Part shown: positions 34,107 through 64,000 of the stretch, one piece after another
Position numbering within the stretch: the stretch's first letter is position 1
How the letters are laid out: every line of letters begins with the position of its first letter
Source: an uncultured Verrucomicrobiota bacterium
GTDB lineage: Bacteria; Verrucomicrobiota; Kiritimatiellia; CAIQIC01; Lenti-01
Direction of reading: 5' to 3'
NCBI GenBank assembly: GCA_964436715.1
Contig: CAYTEK010000002.1
Location: forward strand, 4,282 to 68,281
Length of the DNA stretch: 64,000 nt
The notes under the pieces: generated by a model
The model's database searches: none
Told to the model about the DNA's origin: nothing
The model's input: only the letters and a program-made list of their open reading frames with translations
Translations under genes and position numbers: made by a program

Positions 34107-34111
34107 CGTCG

Positions 34112-34993: not shown

Positions 34994-34996
34994 CGC

Positions 34997-43807: not shown

Positions 43808-43810
43808 GGG

Positions 43811-47268: not shown

Positions 47269-47284
47269 CGTTCGCTCCCGTCCG

Positions 47285-48079
47285 TCAGAAAAACACTTCC
47301 GGCACCATGACGACGTCGTTGGGCTCCAGCGGCACGTCCTGTTGCTTGCCTTTGCCGTCCAGCAGGTCCGACACGCGAATCTTCAGCGTGGTTTGGCGGC
47401 CATTCGGCAATTTCCGGACGATGCGGACGCGATCGGGGCTGGCGAGATCGGTGAAGCCCCCCGCCCCGGCGATCGCCTGCAGCAAGGTCGTCGTGCCGCC
47501 GAAGGGCAGCGGATAGACGCCGGGCGCCTTGACCTCGCCCAACACGGTGATTTGCGAACTCTGCGTGGTCAGCAGCTTGACGATGACGCGCGGATTGACC
47601 AGGTAGTCCTGATCCAGTTTTTCGGCGATGAACGTCTCGGCCTCCGCGACCGTCTTGCCGGCCAAGGGGATCGCGCCCGCCAGCGAATGGCGGACGTCGC
47701 CCGCGGGATCGAGCTTGAACGTGCCGGACAGATCCGGCTCGCGATAGATCTGGAGATCGATTTCGTCGCCGGCTTGCAGCCGATATTCGACGGGCGCGGC
47801 CGCGGCCGCGGCGGGCGGCGCATCCTCCAGGTTGGCGGGCTTCGCGCGGGCGGCCTTCTTGGGGGTCGCATCGTTTTTCGCGGCGGCTCCGGCGACGCCT
47901 TGTGCGTCGCGCGCCGGCGCGGAAGTTTCCGCCGGCATCCCGGACGCAGGCGCGGCGCCCAAGAACCCGTCCGGCGGCCGCGGCCGCGTCTCGCCGGCGC
48001 ACCCCGTCAACCAAGCCAAGACCAGAACCGTCCCCCAGAGCGTGCGCCCATGGCCCAATCTGTTCAAGCGATGCGGCAT
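47285..48079 (-). CDS. wza: Polysaccharide export outer-membrane lipoprotein (Wza/OPX family: Poly_export + SLBB)
   Basis: Lipobox 'LAWLTGC'. 'YRLQAGDEIDLQIYREPDLSG' is the Poly_export motif; 'LGEVKAPGVYPLP...TLLQAIAGAGG' is SLBB. Confidence 0.8.
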   Translation of the reverse strand: MPHRLNRLGHGRTLWGTVLVLAWLTGCAGETRPRPPDGFLGAAPASGMPAETSAPARDAQGVAGAAAKNDATPKKAARAKPANLEDAPPAAAAAAPVEYRLQAGDEIDLQIYREPDLSGTFKLDPAGDVRHSLAGAIPLAGKTVAEAETFIAEKLDQDYLVNPRVIVKLLTTQSSQITVLGEVKAPGVYPLPFGGTTTLLQAIAGAGGFTDLASPDRVRIVRKLPNGRQTTLKIRVSDLLDGKGKQQDVPLEPNDVVMVPEVFF

Positions 48080-48135
48080 GCGGTTTTCTATAGCACGATC
48101 GTTCCGAAAAGAAAACGCCGGAATGCGGCCGGCTT

Positions 48136-49413
48136 TCAATAATTCCAGCTGGCGCGCAGCGACCAGCGGCCTTGTTCGTAGGAATTCGCTTCCTGCGACT
48201 CCTCGTCGCCGTCCACGTCGCCGTCGCGGCGCATGTAGGAATAGGCCGCACCGACGGAGAAGCGGTCCTTGCTCCACCAATCCACGCCGAGCGAGAAGCC
48301 CCAGTAGCGATCGGTCCGGCCATCCCAATCTTCATCCGCGGCCGCGTCGCCGCCGGAATAATCGATTTGCCCGAACGTGGCCGACGCGGTCCCGCGCAAG
48401 CGTTCGGTGAACAGGCGGCGCGTGGCGCCGAACACCGCGCCTTGGTCCACCACGTCGGTGGCATCCGCATCGACGGCCGGCCGGACGTCCGCATGGAGCT
48501 CGCCGGTGAACGTGGTCAGACCGAACGGCGAACTCTCGGCCCGCAGCGAGGCGATCCAGTGCGCATAGTCGCCGCGTTCCTCCGCGTCGTAGGCGCGCCA
48601 CATGTAGCCCAGCCGCCCCGTGGCGTTGAACTTGGGCGACTGCTTGCCGCGCAGGCCCAGCGACAGGTCGCAGAAATCGGCGGCGGCGGCCGAATCCGCG
48701 CGCCGCGGATCGTCGCGGCCGGCGCCGGCTTGGGCGAACAGCTGGCTCTTGCCCGACACGCGGTGATACAGCCGGCCCGCGCCATAGTAGCGGTTGTAGT
48801 CCAGATAGCTGTCCGCGTCGAATTCGTGGATTTCCACATTGCCCTGCAGCCCGACGCTGGACTTGCCCGAAATCCGATGCTCCGCGGACAGGTCGCCGAT
48901 CCAGTCCCGCTTGGACACTCGTGCGCCCACCACGGTGTCCACGTCTTCCAGCCGGCGGTAGCCCAGCTGGGCCTGGAGCTGGCTCTTGCCGGTGCGGAAG
49001 ACGCTGCCCAGCCGCAGCAGGTGGCTGGGATCGTCGCTCGCGTCGTCTTCGCTGTCGTAGATCGGCAGGATCAGGCCGTAGTCGGCGTAGACGTGGTTGC
49101 CCGCCGGCCGGCCCCAGATCGCCAGCAGTCCCGGCACCAGCGCCGCGGTCGTGCGTTCCGTGCCGTTGGACGGATCGAGAAACACGTTGTCGTCGCGCTC
49201 GAACACCACGCTCGCGCGCGGCAGCAGCGCGCCGGTCCGCGCCGGCACGTAGAACGGCTCGGCCACCGGGCCGCCCTGGTCGATGGCGGCCGCGGCATCG
49301 ACGCCGCGCGTGTAGAAGCCGGAGGCGTAGCTGTCGTCCGCGGCCCGGGCGGCGCCGGCCGCCCAAACCGCGGCGAGCGCCGCCAGCCTTCCGATGGCAC
49401 CCGCGCACCGCAT
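48136..49413 (-). CDS. Outer-membrane beta-barrel protein (EPS-locus associated, EpsL-like?)
   Basis: Signal peptide 'MRCAGAIGRLAALAAVWAAGAARAADDS'. Alternating beta-strand pattern and a C-terminal '...SLRASWNY' aromatic terminus. Confidence 0.55.
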   Translation of the reverse strand: MRCAGAIGRLAALAAVWAAGAARAADDSYASGFYTRGVDAAAAIDQGGPVAEPFYVPARTGALLPRASVVFERDDNVFLDPSNGTERTTAALVPGLLAIWGRPAGNHVYADYGLILPIYDSEDDASDDPSHLLRLGSVFRTGKSQLQAQLGYRRLEDVDTVVGARVSKRDWIGDLSAEHRISGKSSVGLQGNVEIHEFDADSYLDYNRYYGAGRLYHRVSGKSQLFAQAGAGRDDPRRADSAAAADFCDLSLGLRGKQSPKFNATGRLGYMWRAYDAEERGDYAHWIASLRAESSPFGLTTFTGELHADVRPAVDADATDVVDQGAVFGATRRLFTERLRGTASATFGQIDYSGGDAAADEDWDGRTDRYWGFSLGVDWWSKDRFSVGAAYSYMRRDGDVDGDEESQEANSYEQGRWSLRASWNY

Positions 49414-51332: not shown

Positions 51333-51797
51333 ATGTCGTTGCCCGCACCCGAATCCCGCGAAATCGTCGAGGCGCTCCTGCGCCAGCGCACGCGCGTTGC
51401 CTTCCGCGCCCAGGGTCCCAGCATGAATCCGACCATTCGCGACGGAGAGACCGTTTTCGTCCGCCCCGCGGACGCGAACGCCTTCCACATTGGAAGCGTT
51501 GTACTGTATCGAACGTCCGGCCGTTTGGCACTTCACAGAATCGCTTTTAACGATAAACGAACAAAACGGCTGTTTCTGGTCGGAGACGCTGCCGTCGCCG
51601 GCGGCGAATGGATTCCGGCCGCCGACGTGATCGGCCTCGCGGAAGGACTGCGCCGCAACGACGCCGTCCGCCGGCTGGACGCCTTCGGCCGCCGCTTGGC
51701 GGGCCGCCTGCGCTTCGCCTTGCGCCCGCTGCGCCGCGCGCTCTGGAATTTCCGCCAGACGCATCATGCGCAAACTCCGGCCCGCGGGGATTCCTGA
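51333..51797 (+). CDS. S24/S26-type (LexA/signal-peptidase-like) serine peptidase
   Basis: 'RAQGPSMNPTIRDGETVFVRP' nucleophile motif and a downstream Lys. The 3' end overlaps the convergent kinase gene by 34 nt. Confidence 0.5.
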   Translation: MSLPAPESREIVEALLRQRTRVAFRAQGPSMNPTIRDGETVFVRPADANAFHIGSVVLYRTSGRLALHRIAFNDKRTKRLFLVGDAAVAGGEWIPAADVIGLAEGLRRNDAVRRLDAFGRRLAGRLRFALRPLRRALWNFRQTHHAQTPARGDS

Positions 51798-52663
51798 AGT
51801 TCCGCCGCCGCCCGCACCGCGTCCGGCGTTTTCGTGAAATGCAGCCGGGCGACGGCGACCTCGCGCACCAGGCGATCCAGCCCGTCCAGAATTCCCTGCG
51901 ACCACTCTTCCTCGAACCACGGCACCGCCGCCACGTCCAGCAGAGCCAGGCGCGATTGGGCGGCGGTCATCGGTTCCGCGCGATCCTGCGCGTCCTGTTT
52001 CAGGAACGCGATCCCGCCCAGCGGCACTTCCGCCGCTTCGGCGAAGCGTCCCGATCCCGGCCACGGCGTGCCGGCCACCCGCCAAGCGGCGCCGCGGCGG
52101 AACACCGCGACGCGATCGTCGTTGAGAATCCGCCAGCCGGCATCCCGCAGCAACGCCGACATCGTGGATTTGCCCGCGCCGCTGCGGCCCGCGAACACCC
52201 AGCCCATCCCGTCTTTCACGGCCACCGCCGCATGCAGCAAGGCGCCGCCCATCTGCGACAGCAGGCCCCACGTCCAAATCTGGTCCACCGGATAGCGCAA
52301 CGGCGCCTCGCAAACGCCGGCACGCCACGCGGAAGCCGGCAGCGCCAGTTCCGCGCGCGTCAAGTCGCGCGCCACGCGGCCGATCATGCGCCGTTCCTCC
52401 GGCGCCCCCAAGCCGACGTGGACGACCAGATCCGCGCCGTCTTTCCAAGCCGCCCAATGGCGCCCCGCGCGCCAGAGCGGCGCGTCCGCGGGCGGCGCCG
52501 CGGTGCCGCAAACGATCTCCACCGGCAATTCGCGCAGCGGCGCGCCGCCGCCGGTGGAATAAAAAGCCGCATGGGGCGGCGCGCCATAGCGCACCGTCCC
52601 CGCGCACGCGGTCCGCAGCGCAAAGCGCAGCGGCCCGACGTCCAAATGCCCGGCGCCGGTCAC
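51764..52663 (-). CDS. HPr-kinase-related P-loop kinase (HprK C-terminal-domain-like)
   Basis: 'HAAVAVKDGMGWVFAGRSGAGKSTMSALL' is the HprK-type Walker A. The GTG start makes a GTGA overlap with the small ORF stop. Confidence 0.65.
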   Translation of the reverse strand: MTGAGHLDVGPLRFALRTACAGTVRYGAPPHAAFYSTGGGAPLRELPVEIVCGTAAPPADAPLWRAGRHWAAWKDGADLVVHVGLGAPEERRMIGRVARDLTRAELALPASAWRAGVCEAPLRYPVDQIWTWGLLSQMGGALLHAAVAVKDGMGWVFAGRSGAGKSTMSALLRDAGWRILNDDRVAVFRRGAAWRVAGTPWPGSGRFAEAAEVPLGGIAFLKQDAQDRAEPMTAAQSRLALLDVAAVPWFEEEWSQGILDGLDRLVREVAVARLHFTKTPDAVRAAAELQESPRAGVCA

Positions 52664-52845
52664 GAACCTCCCTCGTAGGCCACCACGGGCGGCCCCACGC
52701 AGCGGTAGTCGGCATCCAGCTTGCAGCCTTCGGACAACGTCTCCGCCAACGCCAGATCCACCCGTTGGATTTCCGGCTTTTCGTAGCGGGGGCGCGGGGC
52801 CGGACTCTCGTCGGGGGTGGAAATTCGTTCGCAATCCGGTTTCAT
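52660..52845 (-). CDS. Small ORF (61 aa), candidate precursor or partner peptide of the rSAM/PqqD/kinase cassette
   Basis: Strong RBS GGAGGAACGCC-ATG. The ATG overlaps the rSAM stop (ATGA) and the stop overlaps the kinase GTG (GTGA). Peptide: MKPDCERISTPDESPAPRPRYEKPEIQRVDLALAETLSEGCKLDADYRCVGPPVVAYEGGS. Confidence 0.4.
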   Translation of the reverse strand: MKPDCERISTPDESPAPRPRYEKPEIQRVDLALAETLSEGCKLDADYRCVGPPVVAYEGGS

Positions 52846-53936
52846 GGCGTTCCTCCGTTCCGGCGGCCCAGCGCCGCCGCATATCGCAATTCCGTCGTTT
52901 GCCGCATGTAATCCGACTCCCGTTCTTCGTCGCCCGTTTCCAGGCGGTTGAACGCGGGACAATGGACGCAGGCGCCGCGGCGTTCGCCGAACAGGCTGCC
53001 GTCCGTTTGCGTGCGCGTCCGGCGGCGGATGTCCGCCAAATCGCCGGCCCAGACTTCGCGGAACGGCCGACCGGCGGCGGCGCAGGCATAGGCCGTCGCC
53101 AGCAAACACGGCGTCAGGTTGCCGAACGGGTCGCAATGAAAGGACGTCCGGCCGGCCGCGCAGGCATACAATTGGTCGCCGGCGGGATGCGCGGCGGTTT
53201 TCTCGATCTTCTCGCGCCACATCCGGCGCCGCTCGGGCGTCGCCAGGTCCGCCCGCACCACTTCCTCCGGCGACACGCGCAGCGCCAGCGGCGCGCGCGA
53301 ACCGTCTTCCAGGCACGGAAAAATCGCCGCATCGTGCCGGAAAGTCGCGCCGCTGGCCGCGGCCTGCCGCTCCATTTCGGCGCGCTCGCCGCAATTGCCT
53401 TTCATCAAGACGGTTTTCAGCGCGACGCGCACGCCGGCCGCCTGCAGCCGGCGGATGCCCGCCCAGGCCCGCGCGTGCGAACCCGGCGCGCCGGTGATCG
53501 CGTCGTGGGTGGCCGCCGTCGCGCCGTAGAGGCTGATTTCCACCTTGCGCGGCGCCCATTCGCGGAACAGCCCCGCGATCTCGTCCGTGACGAGCGTCCC
53601 GTTGGTGAAGACGGTCACGACCAGGCCCAATTCGCGGGCCTGGCGATGGATCTCCGCGAAATCCGGCCGCAGCAAAGGTTCGCCGCCGGTGAGCGTGAGA
53701 TAGAGGCACCCCGCCTCGGCCCATTCGGCCAGCGCCGCCCGCACGGCGGCGGTGTCGAGTTCGCGCGGCTGGCGGCGACGTTGCTCCGCCTGGTCGCCCA
53801 GATAGCAGTGGACGCAGCGCAAGTTGCAGCGCCGCGTCAGTTCCAGCGTCGCGGCGATCGGTCGCCGCGCCGCGGCGGCGCGCAGGCGGAACGCTTCGGT
53901 CCAATCCCGGGGCCGGGAGTCGCTGGCGCGGTTCAT
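52842..53936 (-). CDS. Radical SAM enzyme with C-terminal SPASM domain (peptide-modifying maturase type)
   Basis: 'CNLRCVHC' CX3CX2C cluster, 'LTGGEPLL', and the SPASM cysteines 'CAAGRTSFHCDPFGNLTPC...GACVHCPAF'. Confidence 0.85.
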   Translation of the reverse strand: MNRASDSRPRDWTEAFRLRAAAARRPIAATLELTRRCNLRCVHCYLGDQAEQRRRQPRELDTAAVRAALAEWAEAGCLYLTLTGGEPLLRPDFAEIHRQARELGLVVTVFTNGTLVTDEIAGLFREWAPRKVEISLYGATAATHDAITGAPGSHARAWAGIRRLQAAGVRVALKTVLMKGNCGERAEMERQAAASGATFRHDAAIFPCLEDGSRAPLALRVSPEEVVRADLATPERRRMWREKIEKTAAHPAGDQLYACAAGRTSFHCDPFGNLTPCLLATAYACAAAGRPFREVWAGDLADIRRRTRTQTDGSLFGERRGACVHCPAFNRLETGDEERESDYMRQTTELRYAAALGRRNGGTP

Positions 53937-54226
53937 GCGCGCACCTCCTCCAGCAGCCGCTGAACCAGCAATTCGCCGGCGAATTCCCGGCAATCGGCCA
54001 GCGCCGCTTCCGGCGCGACGGCGAATTCGGCCGCCAGCGCCGCCGCCGTGGCGGCCAAGGTGCGGCCACCGGCCAAGGCATTCCAAATGAATTCGCCCGT
54101 CGCGTTGATCGGAAACACGCAGCCTTCCCGGGCGACGGCGCCCGACACCGGCACGAGCAGGCGGTCGGCGCCGATCCGGCGCACCACCACCTTGCCTGCC
54201 ACCTCGAATGTCGCCGCGTCGTTCAT
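53933..54226 (-). CDS. PqqD-family protein (RiPP recognition element/peptide chaperone)
   Basis: A ~97-aa protein, 'AGKVVVRRIGADRLLVPVSGAVAREGCVFPINATGEFIWNAL', with the PqqD fold pattern. ATGA overlap with the rSAM gene. Confidence 0.7.
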   Translation of the reverse strand: MNDAATFEVAGKVVVRRIGADRLLVPVSGAVAREGCVFPINATGEFIWNALAGGRTLAATAAALAAEFAVAPEAALADCREFAGELLVQRLLEEVRA

Positions 54227-54233
54227 TCCCGGT

Positions 54234-57200
54234 TTACTTCTTCTTGGCCTTGACGCCGATGAACACGCGCTCTGCCCACGGGCGGTTCACCCGCGTGCGC
54301 ACGGTTTCCATGACACCGTCGGCGTCCGGTTCCACGCCCAGCGTCTGGACGTCGTCCGGTTCCAGCGCCCATTCCTGCAGGTTTTCCGACACGAACAGCC
54401 GATAATCGACGTCGTTGCGCTGGACGCGCCGCTTCCAGCGCAAAACGAAGCCGGACTCGTCCGCTCCGCTGCCGTCCGCAGCCGACGGCGCGAATCCGAA
54501 CTCCGGCAACTCGGCTTCGACGGGGTTCTCGCCGTCGAGCGCGTAGTCGGCGAAATTCGCCGTCGTCGCGCCGCTGACGGCGGCGTTGGTCAGGTCGGCG
54601 GGCGCGAAGCGATCCCAGCGCCACTGGGCGAAATTGTCGGCGCCGGGCCGTTCGTCCACGTTGTCTGCGATCCGCAGCGCGGGATCGCCCAGCAGGTTGT
54701 AGACGGCGTAGGTGTCGTCGGCCAGCGTCTCCGGAGCCATGCGGCGCCGCGCCAGGAGAATCGCCCGGCCCAGCGTGCCCGCGCCTTCTTCCGTCACGGC
54801 GCGATAGAAGGCCGCGCCCAATTCCGCCGCGAATTCGTTGCGCGAGAGTCCGGCGGGCCCCCAGACCGCGACGGCTCCCCCGCCGGCCTTCCGCAGCAGG
54901 AGTTCGCCCAGGCTGTTCACGCCGGGCGCCTCGTACCGCCCGACCAGGCAGCTCAGCGCCACGACGATCGGCGGCCGATTGGGATTGTTCAGGCCGGCGA
55001 CGTCCGCCGCCTTGAGCAGGTTCAGCTTGCTCCAGTTCGCGACGCCGCCGTGGCCCGTGTAGTGGATGAAGCCCGCGCCGCTGTTGAAATAGGCCAGCAG
55101 CTTGTTGCGCGCGGGCGTGATGGCCGTGGCGTTGAGATCGACGACGTCCGCCAGCGGATGCTTGGCGTCGGCCAACGCGGCGAGGCGCTCGTTGGCGGCC
55201 TTGAAGTCGCCCGCGGCGGCGTCGTTGACGTCGTTGGCGAGCACGATCTGGTTCTGCCAGTTCTGGCCGAAGCCGGCTTCGTAGGCCTTGATCTTCGCGA
55301 TCATCGCCGCGAGGTCGTTCGTCGTCAGCGCCGGCAAGCGGCCGATGGCGACGTCCGGCAATTCGTCGCCGCCGACGTCCGCCAGCCGTTCGTCGGCGGC
55401 GAAGAGGCCGTCGCTGCCCGCGAACAGCAGCGGCGGCAGGTGATTCACTTCGTTGCTGAGCGCGTTCAAATAGTCGTAGTGGCCGTTGCCCGCCAGCAGG
55501 ACCATCCACGGCGCCTCCGCCCAGCTGCCCGCGGCGTAGGCCAGCAGCTCCGGAATCGCTTCGGGCGTGCGCAGGCCGCCGGCCAGCAGGTCGCACACGT
55601 CTTCGAACGCCGCCACGCCGACGCGCAGGCCTTGCGCGGCGCGGTAGTCCGTCAGTTCCCGCACCGCGTTGGTGAAGGCGCGCGGCGCCACGACGAGATA
55701 GTCGATCCGGTTCGTTTCGGACAGGAACCACGCCTCCGCCGCCGCGGCGACCGGCGCCAGCGACGGAATGCCGTCTGCTTCGGCCAAGGCGAAGCGCGCG
55801 TCGTCGGCCGTCGCCGCCCAGGCCTTCGCCGGCAGTTCGCCGTTTTCGTCGGCGATCCACGTCGCCCCGCCGTCCCGGTCCAGCGCGACCGCCAGCGGTT
55901 CCGCGTACGCCGCCGCCGAAATCGCGGTGCCGGCCGGCGCCGCGAAATGCGCCGTGCCGGGGCTCGCAACGAGCGTCCGGTCGTAGGTCGCCGTGAAGCC
56001 GTCCACGACGAAGTAGTTCAGGTTGGTGGGCTCCCGGCAGCTCACCGCCAGCACGTTCGTCCCGTCGAACGCGACGCCCGCGGGCACGTCCAGCTCGGCC
56101 GCGAACGTTTCCTGGCCTTCGAATTCGGCCGTGCCCACCGGCACGCCGTTCAGGGCGAACGCCACGAGATGGTCCGGGTTCCGCGCCGCGACCTGCAGCC
56201 AGCCGATCAGGTCCACCGCCAGCGTCAGCGCGCCGCCGCCGTTGCCGGTCAGGACGAACGGAAATTCCGCCTGGTTCGCAGCCGCGTTGGTCGAATTCAT
56301 CACGAACTTCCAATAGTAGAAGTCGTCCGGTTTCGCCGTCACGGCGGTGTTGCCCGGATAGCGGTCCTCCTCGAAACGGATGGACGTCGCGAAGACGGCG
56401 GCGCCGCCGCCCGCGCCCGGGGCGCGCCGCGGCATGGCCAGTCCGCGGCCTTCGTAGATCAGGTAGGCGTTGTCGCGCGCGTACCAGTTGGCCGCCGGCC
56501 CGCCGTGGAAGACCAGCCGGTCGCGCGCCGCGTCGAAGAGCGTCGGCACCAGCCGGCCGGCGCCGAACACGCACAGCGCGTTCGACGCCGCCAGGGCGCG
56601 GATCTCGTCCGCCGGCCGGCCCATGCCGGCCGCGACGTCCGCCAGCGCCACGCCGTAGAGGCCTTCTGCGCCCACGGTCGTCTTCAGGACGGACGAAGGC
56701 CCGCGGTCTTCCTCCGTGCCCAGCCAGAGCGAAGCCGCCGCGTTCTTCGGCGCCGGCCGCGGCGCGCCGAACGTCGCCGCATGGACGCCCAGATCCAGGC
56801 GCGTGCCCGACAGTTCCAGTTCTTCGAGGCGATACGTGCCCGTGCCGCGCGCGCAGGCGGCCGGATCCTTCTGCCGATACGTCGCGCCCGTTTCGTTGAA
56901 CGCGGCCGGCACCGGCTGTTCGTTCAGCAACGTCTCCGCGCCGGTTTCCGGATCGATCCGGTAGACGAAGAAGCCCGCCGTGTTCCACTCCGAACTCGTG
57001 CGCCACACCACCTGGCCGCCGGTTTCCGTCCACTCGCCCCAGACCTCGGCGACTTCCGCGCGGGTGGAATTCAGGCTGGCGAAACCGAAATCCACCGTCC
57101 GATTGGTCGTGCCGGCCGACACGGCGAACGGCGCCGTTTCGAAGTGGCCGGCCGTCGCGCCGTTGGTCGCATCGCTGTCCTGGGCGTCGTCGCCGCCCGC

Positions 57201-60200
57201 ATTGGCCGTCGTCGCAACGACATTCGACGAAATGTCCGTCATGTCGAAGCGCACCCGGTAGGTGCCGCTGGCCAAACCCGCGAACAGGTAGGTGCCCGTG
57301 CTGTCGGTGTTGGTCGTGCGCAGCACGTTGCCGGCGGCGTCGAGCAGCGCCACGGGCAGGTTGGCGATGAAATGGGCCTCGGCCGCGTCCTGGATCCCGT
57401 TGCCGTTGTCGTCGAACCAAACCCGGTCGCCGATGGCCGCCCCGCCCTTCGGCACGATGACCACCGCGCTGCTGTCGTTGCTGGCCACGGGATCGTACAG
57501 GTCGCGGCCCGAGATCGCGGCCACGTTGGTGATCGACATCCCCGAGGTGTTTTCGCGCACGGTGACGTTGATGTAGAGCGTCGTCGCGGCGTTCGCGGCC
57601 AACGTGCCGATCGTCCACGCGCCGGTGCCCGCGTTGTAATTTCCGTTCGAATGGCCGTTGTACTGGAGCTGCGCCGGCAGGACGTCGGCGATCTGCACGC
57701 CCGTCGCCGCGTTCGGCCCGCGGTTGGTCGCCACCAGCACGTATTCGATGATCTGCACCGGATCGGGCGCGTTGGTCGTGACGTACTTGCTCACGCCCAC
57801 GTCGGCGAATTGCACGCAATTCGTGACGGCAGCGTAGATCGCCGGCTGGACCGCGCTGAAGGCCGAAGCCTCATTCAGCAGCTGCGTCGTCGTCGCGGGC
57901 GAACTCACGACCGCCTGCACGGTGACGGTCGCGGATTGGCTGTTGGTCAGCCGCAGATTGACCAGCAGGTTCGGCGGCGGACCCGCCGTCGCCAGCGTGC
58001 CGCCCGCCCACGTCACGCTGCCGGTCACGTAGGCCAAGCCGCTCGGCAGCGGATCGTAGAGCGCGATGCCCGTTTGCGTCACCGTGCCGGTGTTCTGGAC
58101 GACCAGCGTGTAGGTGATCGCGTTGCCGACGGTCAAGCAGGAGCCGGCGCTGGACGTCTTGGTCAGCCGCAGCCCGCGGACGATCGCGGCGAACCCCGCA
58201 TCCCGGCTCGCGTCGGTCGTGCCCGGCGGCAGATAGAACGCCGCCGTGGAGCCGGTGGCCGGCGAAACGTCGCTGTCCGCCGCGTCGCTGCCGCCCTGGT
58301 CTTGCAGGGTGTAGGTGTAGTTGCTGGGCGCGGCGAACTGCAGGAAATAGGTGCCGACCGTCAGGTTCGAGAAGGCATAGGCGCCGGTCGCCGACGACGT
58401 GGTCACGCCCACCGCGTTCGAAGCCGCGTCGTAGAGCGTCACCACCACGCCCGGCATTCCCGTTTCGCTGCCGCCGTCCTGGAGGCCGTCGCCGTCCACG
58501 TCGCGCCAGACGAAATCGCCGATCGCGGAAGACGGCTGGTAGAAGCCCGCGTCGCGGGTCGCGTCGTTCGTTCCGCCGCTCAAGGCAAAGACCGCCGTGC
58601 GCCCCGTGTTGGTGCTGATGTCGCTGTCCAGCGCGTCGTCCCCGCCCTGGTCCTGCGCCGTGGCCAGATAGTTCGACGGCGTGGCGAATTCGAGAAAATA
58701 GGAACCGCTTGGCAGATTCGTGAAGGCGTAGGCGCCGTCCACGCCGGACGTTGCGGTCAGCAGCAGGTTCGAAACGGCGTCGTACAGCCGCACCGTCGCG
58801 CCGGCGATGCCGGGTTCCACGCCGCTTTGCAGGCCGTTGCCGTCCACGTCGTGCCAGACGACGTCCCCCACCCGATTGGCCGCGGAATAATTGGTGGCCG
58901 CGGCGGTCGCCGGCGCGGTCTGGGCATTGGTCGCCGTGGCGACGTTGACGAGCTGGGTGGCCGCCAGCGGCACGCCCAGCGTGCCGCGCACGCGCACGGT
59001 GACGCTCGAACCCGGCGGCAGCGAACAATCGACCAGCAGGTTCGTCAAGTCCGCCGTCAGGTTCGACACGACGACGATCTGCGACGCGTTGCTGTATTGG
59101 GCCACGACGTTGGTGACCACGTCGAAGCCCCGGTTGGTGAACGTGACGAAGTCGAAATTGATCCGATCGCCGGTGTTGAAATTGCCCCCCGCCCTCAGCC
59201 GCAGGCCCATGTTGGCGGACATCCACGTGGTGACGTTGGTGGTGACCGCGACGTAGCCGGCATCGGTGCCGTCGGTCGTCGGCACGGCGAAGACCTGGGT
59301 TTGCGCGGCGAAGTTGTTGGTCGAGAGGTAGACGGTCAGCGTATCGCCGGCGTCCCAGTTCTCGCGGCGGTAGGCCAAGCTCAGGGTCACGTTGGTGTAG
59401 GTGCGGCCGGCCCGCGTCGTGGCCAACTGGTTGCTGCGCGTGACCGAATCGTTGTCGGCATTGGTGTTTTCGAACACCAGGGCGTTGGTGCCGCCGACCG
59501 TGCGAATCAATTCGCTGCCGGTGGTCGCGTTGCCGTTGTCGCCCGTTTCGATCCAGTTGCCGAACCAGTTGGTCGTGCCGTCGTTGTTGTTGTAGGCCGC
59601 CGTGGAAAAAGCGTCGGACACCGTCTCCGCGAAGGCATTGGTCGTCACCGTCTCGAACTGGACGAGCGCGGCGCCGTTGGGCGCGAAATTCACGCCGGCG
59701 GGCAAGGCGTCGGTCAGCTGGATGCCCACCAAGGTGACCGTGCCCGTGTTTTCGATCGTGAGGTAGTAATCGTTGGTGGCGCCGTAGTTCCAGTTCGTGG
59801 CCAGCGCCGAAACCTTGGTCAGCCGCATGCCGATGTTGCCCGAGGCGGCATTCGTCACGCGCGCCGTGATCCACGTCGTCTGCTGGTCGCTCAGCAGCCG
59901 CGCCGCGTTGACGAATTCCGTCGCCGTGATCGGATCGTCCACCGTCGCCGTCAGATAGACGGTCATGTTCGTGCCCGGCGGCAGCGCGTAGTCGTCCAGC
60001 AGGAGCGGCGGATCCGGCAGCGCGTTGGTGGCGTTGGCCGCCGACGCCGCGATGCGCACGTTGTCCAGCCAGACGACGTCGTTCGCGTCGCGCGAGGCGT
60101 TGCCGCCGAACCGGATCACCGTGCCCGTCGAGGCATAGGCCGAAACGTCGAACGTGGCCGTGAAATAGGAACCGTCGTTCGTGGCCCCGCCGATCTGGCC

Positions 60201-63200
60201 CACTTGGACGAACGTGCCGCCGCCGTTGGAGGAGACGTTGACGTTGACGTAGTCGCCCGCCTCGAGGCCCGCGCGGCGATAGCTGAATTGCAGCGTGGCG
60301 CTCGTGTAGCCCGCCAAGTTCGCCGCGCGCTGGAAGAGCGAAGTCGAGACCGTGCGCACCGCGTAGGTCTGGCCCGGGATGGACGTGCCGTCCACCGCCA
60401 TCCGCACGTTGCCGTTGGTGGCCACGGCGTCGTCGTAGACCTCCGTCCAGGGTCCGGCCCAGGCCACGTTGCCGTCGCTGTTGGCGAACGTCTGGAGATC
60501 GAACAGGTCCAGGAACACGTTGGTGTGGGCGAAAGGCCGGTAGAGCCGGGCGGTGCCGTTCGAATACGTCGTGCCGAACGGCAGGACGTCTTCAAGCCGG
60601 ATGCCGGTCTGCGCCACCGTGCCGGTGTTGGAAATCTGGATCGCATAGACCACGCTCGTGCCGGCCGTCAGCAGGTTGGTCGTGCTCGACGTCTTCTGCA
60701 GCCGGACGCCTTCCGTCGCGTTGATCCGGTTGGTCACCGGGTTCGAATCGAGCGGCGTCCGGCTCTGGTCGGCGCGGACCTGCGCCGAATTGACGGTTTG
60801 CGTGGCCACCGGCGGGTTGTCCACCATGACGGCGAACGTCACCGTGGCCGTGCTCCCCGGCAGCAGCGTCACGTCTTCCGCCAGGATCGGCGGCGCCGCG
60901 CCCGCCACCGTCGCGTTGGTTCCGACCAGGACGAACTTCACGTCGTCGAAACGCACGTAATCGGTGGTGCCCAGCGAGGTGGTGCTCAGAAACCGGATCG
61001 CCGTGTTGGTGGACAGGTAGGCGCTGACGTCGACGTTCGTGGAAGCGTAGGCGGTGTCGGTCCCCGCGCCCTGGATCCGCACCAGCAGGTTCGACGACGT
61101 CCAATTGTTGGTGGAAATGAACACGCTGACCGCGTCGTTCGCGTTGTCCAGGGCATCCCGCAAATAGCGGAAGCTCAACGTGGCGCCCCCTTGTCCGGAC
61201 AGGTCGGCGGAACGGGTGGCGGAACGGCTGGCGCCCGCGATTTCCAACACGAAAGCTTCCGCCGAATTGGTCAGGACGTCGGCCAACACCCGGACGTAGC
61301 CGGCCGCCACGCCGTCCGCTTCGCCGCCTTCCGCCCACGGCGTCAGCCAGGGCACCGTGCCGTCGTCGTTCGTGAAAGCCCGTTCGTCGAACCGGTCGTG
61401 CACGACGTTCGTCTGCACGCCGGAAAGCGCGATCCGCGTGCTGTTGGACACGTACGTCAGCCCCAGCGGCAGGTCGTCGTCGATCCGCATCCCCGTGTAG
61501 GTCACCGCGCCCGTGTTGACCACCGTGACGGTGTAGGTGAAATTCGTGCCCGGCTCCAACAGGTTCGTCGTGCTGACCGCCTTGGAGATCGCCAAGCCGC
61601 CGACCATCACGTTCGTGCTGGAACCCGTGGTCCAATTGCCGTTGGTGCCGCCCACTGTCGCGTTGTTGTGGATGTAGCCGGTGAAATCGACGGGCAGGTT
61701 GGTCACGATCTGCGTCACGTAGCGCACCGTGGTGGTCTGCCCCAGTCCGATGGTGCCGAGGTCGCAGCCGCCTTCGTCGAACGGGAACCGCGTCAGTTTC
61801 GGCGGCAAGCTGTCGGGCACGTCGTTGGTGGCGCCGGCGGCGGCCAACATCGCGCTGTTGGTGACGTACGTCGTCAAATCGGTCGGCGGGTTGTCCTCGA
61901 AAATCACGTGGCTGGCCGTGGCGAAACCCACGTTGACCACGTCCACCAGATACTCCAAGGTGTCCCCGGCGTCCGGATAGCCGTTCTCGTTGACGTCGTT
62001 CAGCAAGGTCGCGAATTTCTTCGAAATCACGGTGGGGAACGCCGGAATGGCGTAGCCCATGTCGAGATAGGGATTGCCCGTGCCGGCCAGGGCGGAATCC
62101 TCGCCCCAGGCGCCCAGCAGCACCGTGCCGTCCGTCGTGTAGTAGCGCAGGCCCGATTGATCGTCGTCGCCGGCGTCGAGCAGGCGAATCGTCTGCAGCG
62201 CCGCGACGTTGGTGGCCAAGTCGCACAGATTGCCTTGCGGATCCGTCACGGACCCGGTCGTCGGATCGGCGTCGTAATCCACGTAGAGCGTCGTGTTGCT
62301 GAGCGCCGACACCCACACGGGGTTGCCGTTCGCGCCCGTGCCGGTCGTGCCGTAGCCCGGGCCCCAGCCGACCAGGCCGGCGGTGGACATCATCTTTTCC
62401 GGAACCAGGCTGATGCCCCAGTCGTAGTCCTGGCAGGAGCCGGCCGTGTCGAACAGGCTCACGCCGATGAACGGACTGCCGGCGGCGGCGACGAAACGGG
62501 CGCCGCCGTTCAGCGGCATCTGGAAGGGCGCGCCCACGGCGTTGGCCGCGATGGCGATGCTGCCCGTGCTGGTGGCCGTCGTCACGGTCACCGTGATGGC
62601 CGCGGCGTTGGGATTGAACAGGTACACGTGCGCGGCATAGGTCGTTCCCGCGGAATTGGTCCGCGAACACACCGGCGTGAAATAGTCGGAATCCCACTGG
62701 GTTTCCGGCCACAGTTCGAACCAGCGCGTCTCGTAGTTGGAACCGACGTCGCCCGTGATCAGGCTGCATTGGAACGGCTGGCTGCCGCGCACCGTCGCGC
62801 CGGCCTTCACCCCGCCGTTCACGAAATAGGGCTCGCCTTGGTCCAGATAAATCGTCGTTTCGTAAACGCCGTCGGCGTTGGCGTCGATCTCGACCCGGGT
62901 GAAATCGTAGTCGCCCATGACGTAGAGGGACGACGTGCTGAACATCTCGTTGGTGTTGGCGCCGCTGCCGGTGCCCTCGCCCACCGGCGCGCGATAGACC
63001 ATTCCGTGCGAACCGATGTCCCGCACGCCGATCGCCTCCGCGATCACTTCGCCGGGATCGACCGGGTACATGGCGCGCGTCATGGCGATCGGCTGGGTCA
63101 CGGACACCTTGTCGCGGCCGTCGTATTCGATCGTCACGCTGTTGCGCGTCACGTCGATCTGGTCTTCCAGCCGCACCACCGCGCCGGCATCCAGCACGTC

Positions 63201-63548
63201 GCTCGGAACGTCCGGCGGATACCCGTTGTCCGGATTCGCATCGCCCCACACCTGGCTGGTCATTTGCGTGGGCGACGTGATGTCCGCTTCGTAGCCGTCT
63301 TCCCAATGATCGTAGTAGATGATCGTCTGATCCGTTCCGACGGCCATGCCGATCACGGATTCCATCACGACGCCGATGTTGCCGGCGAAGGCATCGACTG
63401 CGTTCAGCGAAATCTGCATGTCGTCTTCCGGCAGCGGCACGAAGAACGTCTGCAGCACGTTGGCGCCGGACGCCGCGCCCGGCAGCAACCCCGCGGCCAG
63501 CATCGCCGCGCCCAACCAATGCTTCCACCCATTCATAAATATGTTCAT
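54234..63548 (-). CDS. Giant (~3100 aa) secreted surface protein: DUF11/SdrD-B/Cna-B-like repeats plus a C-terminal gingipain-like (peptidase C25/clan CD) domain
   Basis: Signal peptide 'MNIFMNGWKHWLGAAMLAAGLLPGAASGA'. Repeated 'GDVVWHDVDGNGLQ...GSYFLEFATPSNY' (SdrD B-like) and 'TYTVTVVNTGAVTYTG...DDLPLGLTYV' (DUF11). C-terminal 'IHYTGHGGVANWS...IVVALSCLVGRYE' is a His/Cys dyad as in C25. Confidence 0.8.
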   Translation of the reverse strand: MNIFMNGWKHWLGAAMLAAGLLPGAASGANVLQTFFVPLPEDDMQISLNAVDAFAGNIGVVMESVIGMAVGTDQTIIYYDHWEDGYEADITSPTQMTSQVWGDANPDNGYPPDVPSDVLDAGAVVRLEDQIDVTRNSVTIEYDGRDKVSVTQPIAMTRAMYPVDPGEVIAEAIGVRDIGSHGMVYRAPVGEGTGSGANTNEMFSTSSLYVMGDYDFTRVEIDANADGVYETTIYLDQGEPYFVNGGVKAGATVRGSQPFQCSLITGDVGSNYETRWFELWPETQWDSDYFTPVCSRTNSAGTTYAAHVYLFNPNAAAITVTVTTATSTGSIAIAANAVGAPFQMPLNGGARFVAAAGSPFIGVSLFDTAGSCQDYDWGISLVPEKMMSTAGLVGWGPGYGTTGTGANGNPVWVSALSNTTLYVDYDADPTTGSVTDPQGNLCDLATNVAALQTIRLLDAGDDDQSGLRYYTTDGTVLLGAWGEDSALAGTGNPYLDMGYAIPAFPTVISKKFATLLNDVNENGYPDAGDTLEYLVDVVNVGFATASHVIFEDNPPTDLTTYVTNSAMLAAAGATNDVPDSLPPKLTRFPFDEGGCDLGTIGLGQTTTVRYVTQIVTNLPVDFTGYIHNNATVGGTNGNWTTGSSTNVMVGGLAISKAVSTTNLLEPGTNFTYTVTVVNTGAVTYTGMRIDDDLPLGLTYVSNSTRIALSGVQTNVVHDRFDERAFTNDDGTVPWLTPWAEGGEADGVAAGYVRVLADVLTNSAEAFVLEIAGASRSATRSADLSGQGGATLSFRYLRDALDNANDAVSVFISTNNWTSSNLLVRIQGAGTDTAYASTNVDVSAYLSTNTAIRFLSTTSLGTTDYVRFDDVKFVLVGTNATVAGAAPPILAEDVTLLPGSTATVTFAVMVDNPPVATQTVNSAQVRADQSRTPLDSNPVTNRINATEGVRLQKTSSTTNLLTAGTSVVYAIQISNTGTVAQTGIRLEDVLPFGTTYSNGTARLYRPFAHTNVFLDLFDLQTFANSDGNVAWAGPWTEVYDDAVATNGNVRMAVDGTSIPGQTYAVRTVSTSLFQRAANLAGYTSATLQFSYRRAGLEAGDYVNVNVSSNGGGTFVQVGQIGGATNDGSYFTATFDVSAYASTGTVIRFGGNASRDANDVVWLDNVRIAASAANATNALPDPPLLLDDYALPPGTNMTVYLTATVDDPITATEFVNAARLLSDQQTTWITARVTNAASGNIGMRLTKVSALATNWNYGATNDYYLTIENTGTVTLVGIQLTDALPAGVNFAPNGAALVQFETVTTNAFAETVSDAFSTAAYNNNDGTTNWFGNWIETGDNGNATTGSELIRTVGGTNALVFENTNADNDSVTRSNQLATTRAGRTYTNVTLSLAYRRENWDAGDTLTVYLSTNNFAAQTQVFAVPTTDGTDAGYVAVTTNVTTWMSANMGLRLRAGGNFNTGDRINFDFVTFTNRGFDVVTNVVAQYSNASQIVVVSNLTADLTNLLVDCSLPPGSSVTVRVRGTLGVPLAATQLVNVATATNAQTAPATAAATNYSAANRVGDVVWHDVDGNGLQSGVEPGIAGATVRLYDAVSNLLLTATSGVDGAYAFTNLPSGSYFLEFATPSNYLATAQDQGGDDALDSDISTNTGRTAVFALSGGTNDATRDAGFYQPSSAIGDFVWRDVDGDGLQDGGSETGMPGVVVTLYDAASNAVGVTTSSATGAYAFSNLTVGTYFLQFAAPSNYTYTLQDQGGSDAADSDVSPATGSTAAFYLPPGTTDASRDAGFAAIVRGLRLTKTSSAGSCLTVGNAITYTLVVQNTGTVTQTGIALYDPLPSGLAYVTGSVTWAGGTLATAGPPPNLLVNLRLTNSQSATVTVQAVVSSPATTTQLLNEASAFSAVQPAIYAAVTNCVQFADVGVSKYVTTNAPDPVQIIEYVLVATNRGPNAATGVQIADVLPAQLQYNGHSNGNYNAGTGAWTIGTLAANAATTLYINVTVRENTSGMSITNVAAISGRDLYDPVASNDSSAVVIVPKGGAAIGDRVWFDDNGNGIQDAAEAHFIANLPVALLDAAGNVLRTTNTDSTGTYLFAGLASGTYRVRFDMTDISSNVVATTANAGGDDAQDSDATNGATAGHFETAPFAVSAGTTNRTVDFGFASLNSTRAEVAEVWGEWTETGGQVVWRTSSEWNTAGFFVYRIDPETGAETLLNEQPVPAAFNETGATYRQKDPAACARGTGTYRLEELELSGTRLDLGVHAATFGAPRPAPKNAAASLWLGTEEDRGPSSVLKTTVGAEGLYGVALADVAAGMGRPADEIRALAASNALCVFGAGRLVPTLFDAARDRLVFHGGPAANWYARDNAYLIYEGRGLAMPRRAPGAGGGAAVFATSIRFEEDRYPGNTAVTAKPDDFYYWKFVMNSTNAAANQAEFPFVLTGNGGGALTLAVDLIGWLQVAARNPDHLVAFALNGVPVGTAEFEGQETFAAELDVPAGVAFDGTNVLAVSCREPTNLNYFVVDGFTATYDRTLVASPGTAHFAAPAGTAISAAAYAEPLAVALDRDGGATWIADENGELPAKAWAATADDARFALAEADGIPSLAPVAAAAEAWFLSETNRIDYLVVAPRAFTNAVRELTDYRAAQGLRVGVAAFEDVCDLLAGGLRTPEAIPELLAYAAGSWAEAPWMVLLAGNGHYDYLNALSNEVNHLPPLLFAGSDGLFAADERLADVGGDELPDVAIGRLPALTTNDLAAMIAKIKAYEAGFGQNWQNQIVLANDVNDAAAGDFKAANERLAALADAKHPLADVVDLNATAITPARNKLLAYFNSGAGFIHYTGHGGVANWSKLNLLKAADVAGLNNPNRPPIVVALSCLVGRYEAPGVNSLGELLLRKAGGGAVAVWGPAGLSRNEFAAELGAAFYRAVTEEGAGTLGRAILLARRRMAPETLADDTYAVYNLLGDPALRIADNVDERPGADNFAQWRWDRFAPADLTNAAVSGATTANFADYALDGENPVEAELPEFGFAPSAADGSGADESGFVLRWKRRVQRNDVDYRLFVSENLQEWALEPDDVQTLGVEPDADGVMETVRTRVNRPWAERVFIGVKAKKK

Positions 63549-63660
63549 GCGTTTTCCTGTGGCCGATTCCGAACCGTCGAAACATTCCACGTGCAAAATA
63601 TTGTCAATAAACTAGAACAGATCTGTTTGAATCGTGTTAGGAGCGGCGGAAAGCCGGCAA
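63549..63660 (-). promoter_or_regulatory. AT-rich promoter/leader region of the giant surface-protein gene
   Basis: The window's lowest-GC stretch by eye, 'tcaataaactagaacagatctgtttgaatcgtgtt', lies just upstream of the start. Confidence 0.35.
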
Positions 63661-63802
63661 AAAACTTCCCAAAAGGCCGATTTTGCTTCCGAAATCGAGC
63701 GATTTGCGGCGATTTTCGCCTTCCATCCCCCATTTTCGAAGTTGGGGTCCGGATTTTTTGGGGGCTCGGCGCAACGGGCCGACGCCGGTCGGCGCGGTGC
63801 GG

Positions 63803-64000
63803 CTACGGGGTCAACCCGCGCAGCGTTTTCATGGCGACGTCGCCCAATTCCAACGTGTGCCGGCTGTCGCGAAAAACGATCCGATGGCCGGCGTCGCGGC
63901 CGCCATCCTGCGCGATTTGAACTTCGCGCAGGTTGACGATCGTCGAGCGATCCAGCGCCTTGAATTCGTCCGGCAGGATCTCGCGCCATTCGCGCAGCGG
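63803..64000 (-). CDS. C-terminal fragment of a LytTR-family DNA-binding regulator (5' end beyond window)
   Basis: Minus-strand translation '...FKALDRSTIVNLREVQIAQDGGRDAGHRIVFRDSRHTLELGDVAMKTLRGLTP*' resembles the LytTR C-terminus (RSxIVNL...). Confidence 0.45.
   Translation of the reverse strand, partial: PLREWREILPDEFKALDRSTIVNLREVQIAQDGGRDAGHRIVFRDSRHTLELGDVAMKTLRGLTP

Follow-up and report, generated by a model that had tools for sequence, protein, structure and literature searches.

A giant gene on the minus strand of the 64,000-nt stretch of contig CAYTEK010000002.1 analysed here (the window) forms part of a conserved six-gene unit, in which a C25-type protein is combined with a peptide-maturation cassette. 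The order of the unit is giant C25 protein, PqqD, a radical SAM/SPASM enzyme, a precursor of ~60 aa, ScmC, and an S24 peptidase resembling signal peptidase I (SpI). This combination, one C25 protein and five cassette genes, is found in at least three bacterial phyla. Judged from its sequence, the giant is secreted, fibrillar, and adhesin-like, and comes from a Kiritimatiellia-type wastewater bacterium, a member of the Planctomycetota-Verrucomicrobiota-Chlamydiota (PVC) group. Its C-terminal module is predicted to be a PorU-like C25 peptidase, neither a PorU orthologue nor a gingipain, and the five small genes are best interpreted as a radical-SAM variant of phosphopeptide systems of the linear polyphosphorylated peptide (LPP)/paeninodin type. 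A direct functional link of some kind between the giant and the cassette peptide is probable. To our knowledge, C25 peptidases have so far been known almost exclusively from Bacteroidota, as gingipains (virulence proteases) and as PorU, the sortase of the T9SS (type IX secretion system). Each component of the unit is of a known kind (C25/PorU-like peptidase, CLIPPER/SdrD_B stalk, recognition element, radical SAM enzyme, HprK-like kinase, SpI-like peptidase); it is the combination that appears to be new. A search of the literature found no description of a C25 giant together with a cassette of the type that makes peptides synthesized by ribosomes and then modified post-translationally (RiPPs).

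The pairing was surveyed from both of its sides. On the cassette side, an alignment of ScmC homologues led to 27 loci from species-representative genomes. A C25-module gene lies upstream of PqqD on the same strand in 17 of 17 Kiritimatiellia/Lentisphaerae-type species loci with enough upstream DNA. The C25-PqqD gap is at most 325 nt in 15 of the 17 and 2.7–3.0 kb in two, and most of these loci have an open reading frame (ORF) of more than 2,700 codons. On the protease side, 80 loci were obtained by scanning metagenomes with the C25 alignment and were then searched with hidden Markov models of the cassette proteins; the counts refer to C25 homologues that are 26–43% identical and have 600 nt or more of DNA downstream (n = 59). 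PqqD and the radical SAM gene follow directly downstream in 25 of these 59 distant homologues, and at least one cassette gene is present in the locus in 34. Those followed directly by PqqD and the radical SAM gene include members of Nitrospirota and Anaerolineae, and they often share the architecture of the window's giant. The median C25-to-cassette gap in distant loci is ~19 nt, an approximate figure, and the cassette-linked loci among them span a GC content of 0.38–0.72. By exact look-ups, locus L069 belongs to Thermodesulfovibrionales and L081 to Anaerolineae, and L072 comes from another Kiritimatiellia lineage. An earlier, sequence-only reading of this DNA had named synteny in relatives as a check on its proposal that the giant could be a functional partner of the cassette. 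The pairing is conserved far more widely than expected, and the partnership is supported by it.

Locus L069 encodes a 2,762-aa giant with a signal peptide, the YYDHWEDGY tip that the window's giant also has, five SdrD_B domains, and C25 at its end. After 29 nt come PqqD, the radical SAM enzyme, a 59-aa precursor, ScmC, S24, and a 129-aa ORF, and the genes that flank the cassette beyond these are unrelated and lie on the opposite strand (M48 protease, RpoD, FKBP, NMO). A type II secretion pseudopilin-G-like gene (N_methyl and T2SSG; 3703–4254) stands 64 nt upstream of the L069 giant, a neighbour that may hint at the route by which the giants cross the outer membrane. In locus L041 (GC 0.72) the unit is rearranged to ScmC-C25-S24-PqqD-x-C25, so that two C25 genes lie inside a cluster that also has NTP_transf_5 and the precursor; its components are ~30% identical to those of the window. 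L081 and L087 have short C25 partners of ~740 aa and no stalk. A signal or lipoprotein-like N-terminus is present in every C25 partner examined. Loci L007 and L018 show an extended order of a 1,429-aa C25 protein, a 7TMR-DISM kinase, a LytTR regulator, a 3,893-aa giant, and PqqD.

The alternative is that the giant and the cassette are neighbours only. The giant would then be an autonomous adhesin-protease, comparable to the gingipain-adhesin polyproteins that bind and degrade substrates, and the cassette would make an unrelated peptide (a signal, an antimicrobial, or a matrix component), with synteny reflecting co-regulation or co-inheritance of surface or biofilm genes. A number of observations fit this and weigh against a tight link. 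About 40% of the distant C25 homologues with downstream DNA have no cassette gene within 10 kb, so the C25 module can work without it, and some Kiritimatiellia C25 paralogues sit elsewhere, as in L040. Cassettes also occur without the protease: ScmC/S24/PqqD systems lacking C25 are found in Myxococcota, Comamonas, and Elusimicrobiota, and the LPP clusters of Bacillota, which in Bacilli lie in capsule loci, have no C25 partner either (PMC13381572). The window's unit follows a LytTR regulator gene and heads a polysaccharide locus, and in some relatives arrays of palindromes or terminators stand between the C25 gene and PqqD. Set against this, the pairing holds across at least three phyla and a GC range of 0.38–0.72, including a locus flanked by unrelated housekeeping genes (L069). 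It recurs in another gene order with C25 genes within the cassette (L041), and typical gaps are ~20 nt. Adjacency this deep is rarely kept by co-regulation alone, and we consider a mere neighbourhood possible but doubtful. Because C25-cassette adjacency is kept across phyla in differing surroundings, the giant and the cassette most likely act together at the cell surface.

The C25 copies that appear unlinked are mostly tandem neighbours in the same extended locus, and in a neighbour-joining tree of C25 modules the cassette-linked and other copies are intermixed, not separated. In L040 (10001–18424), the paralogue P0026 (1,282 aa) follows a 3,523-aa TIG/CLIPPER giant and has no ScmC cassette. 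An exosortase EpsH/EpsI gene lies ~3 kb downstream of it and a further radical SAM gene is close by, so that it sits in the neighbourhood of a different sorting system. Loci L033–L038 (Myxococcus, Corallococcus, Pyxidicoccus, Comamonas, Elusimicrobiota) encode distant ScmC proteins at 29–39% identity and have no C25 gene. Two of the myxobacterial loci gave weak matches to the frame-check queries right after ScmC, and the Elusimicrobiota locus has three radical SAM genes and PqqD, resembling the SynChlorMet cassette.

The giant gene is a real, single gene. Its minus-strand open frame spans 63596 to 54234 in the ORF list, the ATG at 63548 yields 3,104 residues, and the GC content at third codon positions is 0.90. 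Two independent 55-kb Joint Genome Institute metagenome contigs (L001 and L002) have a call for the identical 3,104-aa gene, and a sewage contig (L003) carries a variant of 3,100 aa. A plus-strand ORF of 3,290 aa that covers the giant (54048–63920) was dismissed as a shadow frame, since its translation is Arg-rich nonsense in a genome of 69% GC. The gene limits, the signal peptide, and the 7-nt distance from stop codon to PqqD, as first read, all agree with the sequence. Between L003 (425–2002) and L001 (679–2268) the N-terminal 530 aa of the giants are just 89% identical, while on the same contig pair the C25 module is 99% identical and PqqD, the radical SAM enzyme, the precursor, and ScmC are 100% identical. 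Such strain variation focused on the tip is as expected for a surface-exposed binding tip under diversifying pressure.

The N-terminus has a basic n-region, a hydrophobic core, and small residues at -3/-1, and is predicted to be a Sec-type signal peptide. The tip that follows (coordinates of all parts in Table 1) has no Pfam match, even at E ≤ 5. Its 89 homologues, in Verrucomicrobia, Caldilineae, Actinomycetota, cyanobacteria, and others, sit at the N-terminus of DUF11 proteins across many phyla, and some are annotated as IgGFc_binding (PF17517). An AlphaFold2 (AF2) model of the tip is all-beta with a predicted local distance difference test score (pLDDT) of 88, and a fold search with the model of the tip and the first part of the stalk returned generic beta-sandwich matches only (integrins, reelin, alpha-2-macroglobulin). 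DUF11 is now named CLIPPER, and CLIPPER and SdrD_B are isopeptide-type stalk domains of fibrillar adhesins (bioRxiv 10.1101/2025.04.25.650565). Residues ~528–650 of the giant form one CLIPPER domain, and residues 650–1545 hold three repeats of ~295 aa, each a CLIPPER domain interrupted by an insert of ~200 aa. The inserts share the motif F-x-N-x-DG-x3-W-x3-W-x-E, which is also found in the distant locus L056, and none of the three has a Pfam match at E ≤ 5. These repeats were found by BLASTP of fragments against the whole protein; self-BLASTP of the whole protein gave the identity match only. The repeat types named in the sequence-only reading are borne out by Pfam, with three copies of SdrD_B (E 2e-87), five of DUF11 (E 3e-51), and SpaA; DUF7507 and CarboxypepD_reg are matched as well. 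The SdrD_B stalk matches solved SdrD B domains in sequence at E 1.7e-29. With its signal peptide, terminal non-repeat domain, and tandem Ig-like stalk of families predicted to hold intramolecular isopeptide bonds, the giant has the marks of a fibrillar adhesin (bioRxiv 10.1101/2025.04.25.650565). It differs in that a protease module replaces the usual anchoring or sorting domain, and in that three of its CLIPPER domains carry large inserts.

The module at the other end of the giant consists, in order, of a small beta domain, a linker, beta domains, the C25 catalytic domain, and a C-terminal beta domain. Residues 2267–2279 form a low-confidence linker. Peptidase_C25 (PF01364) is matched over profile positions 1–374 of 374 at E 3.9e-68 (230.8 bits against a cut-off of 23). 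The catalytic dyad is predicted to be His2833 in HYTGHGG (codon 55050–55052) and Cys2867 in ALSCLVG (codon 54948–54950); the two are in register with His211 and Cys244 of RgpB, and the dyad is kept in 37 of 38 aligned sequences. In the exception, P0022, Tyr and Ser replace the catalytic His and Cys, and the protein is probably a non-catalytic paralogue. The C25 domain that had been placed at the C-terminus is there in full length, but it is followed by a tail of 144 aa. The tail has no Pfam match (E ≤ 5) and no match to a T9SS C-terminal domain (CTD). It is missing from many distant homologues, whose matches stop at query residue ~801, and the L069 protein ends with C25. The module has 47 homologues, 23 of them at 100% coverage (48–60% identity), several from named Kiritimatiellia. 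Its partner domains vary among them (SdrD_B, CLIPPER, MBG, discoidin, Ice_binding, GEVED); some homologues are the module alone (962–978 aa), and a few have it N-terminally (L008).

Two side observations concern the module's architecture. In locus L039, a 2,307-aa SdrD_B/CLIPPER protein (3057–9980) is followed after 20 nt by a 962-aa module-only protein, P0007 (10001–12889), which is either a real two-gene arrangement or an assembly frameshift. The first small beta domain (residues 2160–2260; 56769–57071), with the motif W-x-T-x2-E-x4-GF-x-V-x-R ... Y-x-L-E, has no Pfam match at E ≤ 5. It also occurs in separate secreted proteins in or beside distant C25/ScmC clusters (366 aa at 13903–15003 of L041 and 295 aa at 1967–2854 of L042).

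The sequence-only reading had called the domain gingipain-like. The C25 fold and the dyad are indeed shared with gingipains, as is the plan of a large secreted polyprotein that joins protease and adhesin domains (RgpA, RgpB, Kgp), but PorU is nearer. A profile of the module built from Kiritimatiellia only matches Porphyromonas gingivalis PorU at E 1.9e-19 and gingipains at ~5e-9. An earlier PorU profile match at E 5e-86 was discounted, as its alignment held three Bacteroidia PorU sequences. The AF2 model of the 945-aa module (pLDDT 85, predicted template-modelling score 0.79) has PorU (6za2) as its best match in the Protein Data Bank by Foldseek (E 4.9e-24), with 981–1,000 aligned columns against ~520 for RgpB and Kgp. 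Neither Propeptide_C25 nor the Ig-like Peptidase_C25_C is among the giant's Pfam matches at E ≤ 0.01, and its adhesin-like parts are N-terminal and of CLIPPER/SdrD_B type, unlike those of gingipains. In a profile alignment with residues counted by hand, the S1 residue Asp163 of RgpB aligns with the Phe in a conserved GDF, and specificity for Arg/Lys is therefore not to be expected.

PorU (MEROPS C25) is the C-terminal signal peptidase and sortase of the T9SS and attaches cargo to anionic lipopolysaccharide (LPS) (PMC8545088, PMC4560394). The module resembles it in its C25 domain with a His/Cys dyad, in its predicted extracytoplasmic location, and in being best matched to PorU by sequence and fold over its whole length, including the beta domains preceding the catalytic domain. 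Its position near a surface polysaccharide locus is a further parallel, the acceptor of PorU's cargo being anionic LPS. Against a closer identification, the fold similarity to PorU is moderate (template-modelling score 0.40–0.45, with a flexible multidomain model), and the PorU family cut-offs are missed by both NF033707 (138.8 bits vs 420) and NF052324 (99.5 vs 450). Unlike PorU, the module is fused to a tip and stalk of 2,100 aa and linked to a RiPP-like cassette, not to PorV/PorZ. No T9SS context was seen for its homologues in Kiritimatiellia, Nitrospirota, and Anaerolineae. No T9SS component is among the annotated genes of the window, the data being limited to the window and fragments of metagenome-assembled genomes (MAGs). 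No Por_Secre_tail match was obtained at the giant's C-terminus, the sole match (24.9 bits) lying in an SdrD_B-like domain at residues 2062–2101. We call the module a PorU-like C25 peptidase, and not PorU or a gingipain, because its likeness is best to PorU yet below the family cut-offs, and because it lacks a T9SS CTD and gingipain domains and has Phe in place of Asp163.

Of the cassette, the sequence-only reading had recognized PqqD and the radical SAM enzyme. Both were confirmed (E 2.4e-12 and 1.3e-25), but the cassette is larger and also comprises a precursor, ScmC, and S24 on the opposite strand. Four-nt overlaps join PqqD, the radical SAM gene, the precursor, and ScmC at each boundary, the PqqD stop and the radical SAM start forming ATGA. 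PqqD, a discrete RiPP recognition element (RRE), matches the NCBIfam lasso PqqD and ScmD families, both under cut-off. In the radical SAM enzyme, C37/C41/C44 form the CxxxCxxC motif, and six Cys lie in the C-terminal part. Among NCBIfam models the enzyme matches mycofactocin maturase best, at 116 bits and under the cut-off, aligned over MftC model positions 10–309 of 339. The kinase matches HprK_rel_A and ScmC of NCBIfam under cut-off. The S24 peptidase is matched by Pfam S24 (30.3 bits vs a cut-off of 23.3), with TIGR02228 as best NCBIfam match (34.6 bits, under cut-off). Its gene is convergent with ScmC, overlaps it by 34 nt, and starts ~27 nt from the divergent start of the FecR gene at 51305. 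A 151-aa minus-strand ORF (51312–51767), called on most public contigs, was rejected as a shadow of S24: the plus frame is 38–70% conserved and the minus frame 27–52%.

Every related locus has the probable precursor. Its N-terminus varies, and the sequence continues as RRPYEKPEIKRVDLALAETLSEGCKLExDxxCVGPPxTAxEGGS, in which two Cys and the C-terminal Gly-Ser are invariant. In distant precursors YxxPxL, GCK, and further Cys are kept, and the C-terminus is Gly-Ser, Gly-Thr, or Ser-Ser. When 1.84 billion representatives were searched with the precursor, 25 clusters emerged, almost all of 45–65 aa; two long repetitive matches, one of which was inspected (P0315), were set aside as low-complexity noise. 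The precursor has no Pfam match at E ≤ 5.

The nearest relatives of the cassette are the LPP systems of Bacillota, whose core genes encode an SpI-like leader peptidase, a discrete RRE, and an HprK-like kinase (Nat Commun 2026;17:6633, PMC13381572). The LPP leader, YxxPxVLxHQxIxFET, is cut after Thr(-1) by the SpI-like peptidase presented by the RRE, core Ser3 is polyphosphorylated, and the clusters are embedded in capsule loci (PMC13381572). Paeninodin-type HprK-like kinases, which tailor lasso peptides, phosphorylate a conserved C-terminal Ser of the precursor (PMC9266682). The window's cassette likewise has a PqqD-like RRE, an HprK-like kinase, and an SpI-like peptidase, and lies beside a polysaccharide locus. 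The Y1/P4/I6/E15/T16 spacing of its precursor (Y-E-K-P-E-I-x8-E-T-L-S) equals that of the LPP leader consensus YxxPx[V/I]...ET, and conserved Ser residues are candidate acceptors. It is unlike the LPP systems in adding a radical SAM/SPASM enzyme, a Cys-containing core, and a C25 partner, and in belonging to diderm phyla; the LPP paper mentions neither C25 nor radical SAM (PMC13381572). Neither an LPP-type NTP transferase nor an MsbA-like exporter lies between 51.3 and 54.2 kb of the window; the ABC-2/Wzt pair further downstream is of polysaccharide type, and NTP_transf_5 is present in L041. The SynChlorMet system (ScmC TIGR04249, ScmD TIGR04248, ScmE/F TIGR04250/04251) also combines a ScmC HprK-like protein (PF27840), a PqqD-like protein, and radical SAM/SPASM enzymes. 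The window differs by one radical SAM gene instead of two, by the S24 peptidase, and by the C25 partner, and misses the SynChlorMet equivalog cut-offs (ScmC 35.3 vs 125, ScmD 23.9 vs 100, ScmE 79.6 vs 400, ScmF 90.3 vs 400). Several points count against assigning the cassette to the LPP/paeninodin type: the radical SAM enzyme, ScmC, PqqD, and S24 all score under NCBIfam equivalog cut-offs, the Ser after Glu-Thr is not universal (Gly in three loci) and is shifted by one position relative to the LPP motif, and no peptide exporter was found inside the six-gene unit.

The presence of a precursor with an RRE-type leader inside the cassette makes it unlikely that the giant is a substrate of the radical SAM enzyme, as the sequence-only reading had also entertained. 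That the giant itself is modified by PqqD and the radical SAM enzyme would agree with the conserved synteny and with its stop codon 7 nt before PqqD, a frequent position of precursor genes. The cassette, though, has its dedicated, conserved 61-aa precursor with a YxxPxI leader, and the giant carries a Sec signal peptide, whereas radical SAM and kinase chemistry is cytoplasmic. The giant contains two Y..P.[LIVF] matches, a chance-level number, neither of them leader-like in context, and many cassette-linked homologues lack the tail that adjoins PqqD. We regard this idea as highly improbable.

The stop codon of the giant (TAA, 54236–54234) and the ATG of PqqD (54226) are so close that co-transcription had been proposed. 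No terminator-like site or hairpin was found at this junction, an outcome of the accompanying terminator check that favours the proposal. A promoter scan of 46–64 kb gave no sigma-70-like site and is not informative for this phylum. A single transcript from the giant through ScmC is plausible in the window, favoured by the 7-nt gap, the missing junction hairpin, and the 4-nt overlaps downstream. The convergent S24 gene separates this unit from the FecR and polysaccharide genes.

Co-transcription would not be universal. Counting against it, several relatives have C25-PqqD spacers of 160–330 nt filled with terminator-like palindromes. The palindrome is an AT-rich, 19-nt perfect TTTTCCAC-N3-GTGGAAAA in 2–10 tandem copies, often followed by T-runs, and resembles either a repetitive extragenic palindromic (REP) element or a terminator. 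It also occurs directly after other C25 genes in Kiritimatiellia MAGs, and there is none in the 64-kb window. Locus L015 has a different repeat (TTCAATATTCAAT...) at the corresponding site. Tight coupling of C25 gene and cassette is common, not obligatory.

On the preferred mechanism, in which the two partners of the unit act together, we infer the following steps. PqqD would bind the YxxPxI leader of the precursor, the radical SAM enzyme would cross-link its Cys-containing core, and ScmC would phosphorylate a Ser. The invariant C-terminal Ser is the favoured candidate, since three loci have Gly instead of Ser after Glu-Thr. The S24 peptidase would cut the leader off after the conserved Glu-Thr. 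Once exported, the modified peptide may meet the PorU-like module outside the cell as a substrate, acceptor, or regulator; we prefer that it would be a substrate or acceptor of a PorU-like peptidase/transpeptidase. Since the unit heads the polysaccharide locus and follows the LytTR regulator in this genome, its role here is probably in building the surface or matrix.

As a T9SS-independent sortase, the module would ligate protein and peptide. The acyl-enzyme would form on the stalk-module linker of the giant itself or on a different surface protein, and would be resolved onto an amine of the Cys-cross-linked, Ser-phosphorylated, possibly glycan-bearing exported peptide. Alternatively, the module may ligate or cyclise the peptide itself at its invariant C-terminal Gly-Ser. 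We consider a sortase of this kind unlikely. The module could instead be a purely hydrolytic maturation protease outside the cytoplasm, trimming or activating the exported peptide with no ligation, while stalk and tip merely position it; this would be a direct link in a simple form. The conserved His/Cys dyad, the signal or lipoprotein-like N-termini of all examined partners, and the stalkless partners of ~740 aa (L081, L087) agree with such a role, and the C-terminal Gly-Ser of the precursor could be a cleavage mark. Yet the cassette has a leader peptidase of its own, of the type that does this job in LPP systems, the module is nearer to the transpeptidase PorU than to the hydrolytic gingipains, and a tip and stalk of 2,000 aa conserved in two phyla are hard to explain for mere trimming. 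Maturation of this sort seems to us decidedly unlikely.

Table 1. Features of the window and of related loci. Positions refer to the window unless a locus is named.
Feature	Position	Strand	Basis and remarks
Giant surface protein gene, 3,104 aa	54234..63548	minus	ORF and translation, Pfam domains; stop codon included
Signal peptide, residues 1-29 (MNIFMNGWKHWLGAAMLAAGLLPGAASG/A, then N)	63462..63548	minus	Read by eye from the sequence, not by a predictor
Beta-rich tip, residues 30-520 (~490 aa), motif YYDHWEDGYE	61989..63461	minus	AF2 model, homologues
CLIPPER(DUF11)-type stalk, residues 528-1545	58914..61967	minus	Fragment BLASTP repeats, DUF11/DUF7507 matches
SdrD_B x2 (1556-1786), CLIPPER x2 (1790-2030), SdrD_B (2037-2157)	57078..58883	minus	Pfam, repeats
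PorU-like module, 945 aa, residues 2160-3104	54237..57071	minus	Homologues, AF2 model, fold match
Peptidase_C25 domain, residues 2617-2960	54669..55700	minus	Pfam
C-terminal tail, residues 2961-3104 (144 aa), predicted beta-sandwich	54237..54668	minus	Model strands at module positions 875-944
Junction ACCGGGA (7 nt), giant stop to PqqD start	54227..54233	minus	Sequence
PqqD-family protein, 97 aa (discrete RRE)	53933..54226	minus	Pfam PqqD E 2.4e-12
Radical SAM/SPASM-type enzyme, 364 aa	52842..53936	minus	Radical_SAM E 1.3e-25, 91 bits
Probable precursor peptide, 61 aa, ending in RPRYEKPEIQRVDLALAETLSEGCKLDADYRCVGPPVVAYEGGS and stop	52660..52845	minus	Conservation across loci
ScmC-family HprK-like kinase, 299 aa, Walker A GRSGAGKST	51764..52663	minus	PF27840 precomputed annotation; 202 homologues
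S24/S26 (archaeal-type signal peptidase I-like) peptidase, 154 aa, motif GPSMNPT	51333..51797	plus	Pfam S24
FecR-domain protein, 629 aa	49416..51305	minus	Pfam FecR E 1.6e-6; first gene of the next minus-strand unit
Surface-polysaccharide locus	32311..49413	minus	Pfam, NCBIfam, gene calls on L001
EpsL-like outer membrane protein			Within polysaccharide locus
Poly_export	47285-48079		Within polysaccharide locus
Tyrosine autokinase	45121-47268		Within polysaccharide locus
Wzy_C	43811-45124		Within polysaccharide locus
LytTR response-regulator gene, 3' end (cut by window end)	63803..64000	minus	Translation; Response_reg and LytTR on L001
Palindrome arrays	L018 8295-8397; L019 8366-8384, 3984-4002; L025 4188-4416; L026 2601-2828; L027 8295-8386; L007 14308-14348; L008 13901-14025

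On its downstream side the unit borders a FecR gene, which follows the cassette in Kiritimatiellia-type loci and not in L069, and beyond it the surface-polysaccharide locus. This locus also encodes ABC-2 Wzm, Wzt with Wzt_C, several GT2/GT4 glycosyltransferases, and an FkbM methyltransferase, and so combines genes of Wza/Wzc/Wzy_C type with those of ABC-2 Wzm/Wzt type (32311–48079). Its best NCBIfam matches are to PEP-CTERM/XrtA-associated families, all under cut-off, and no exosortase gene was seen in the part examined. The polysaccharide locus is a lineage-specific setting that lies outside the conserved unit. On the upstream side, a spacer of 254 nt (63549–63802) with a GC content of 0.54, against ~0.69 for the window overall, separates the LytTR gene from the giant. 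LytTR regulators often control exopolysaccharide or peptide-signalling regulons. A 7TMR-DISM sensor kinase and a LytTR regulator also stand upstream of the orthologous giant in L007 (14814–17928). Rfam and ARAGORN matched only tRNA-Pro(GGG) at 16825–16901 on the minus strand and tRNA-Cys(GCA) at 17600–17674 on the plus strand of the window, and these scans found nothing near the giant or the cassette.

The finding extends PorU-like modules on giant fibrillar stalks to PVC bacteria, Nitrospirota, and Anaerolineae. It ties them to a radical-SAM variant of LPP/paeninodin-type machinery, which was previously described in Bacillota only and without a C25 partner. It also corrects the annotation of the locus, where the 61-aa precursor is easy to overlook, as is the antisense S24 peptidase, and where public data include a called shadow ORF. 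A pairing of protease and peptide in three phyla was unexpected and yields testable roles for phosphorylated linear RiPPs, namely surface anchoring, matrix building, and protease control. It may reveal a sortase-like pathway outside the T9SS. If the sortase reading were true, the ribosomal peptide would serve to anchor or link the giant adhesin covalently, and the unit would represent a new protein-sorting or anchoring system common to Kiritimatiellia, Nitrospirota, and Chloroflexota.

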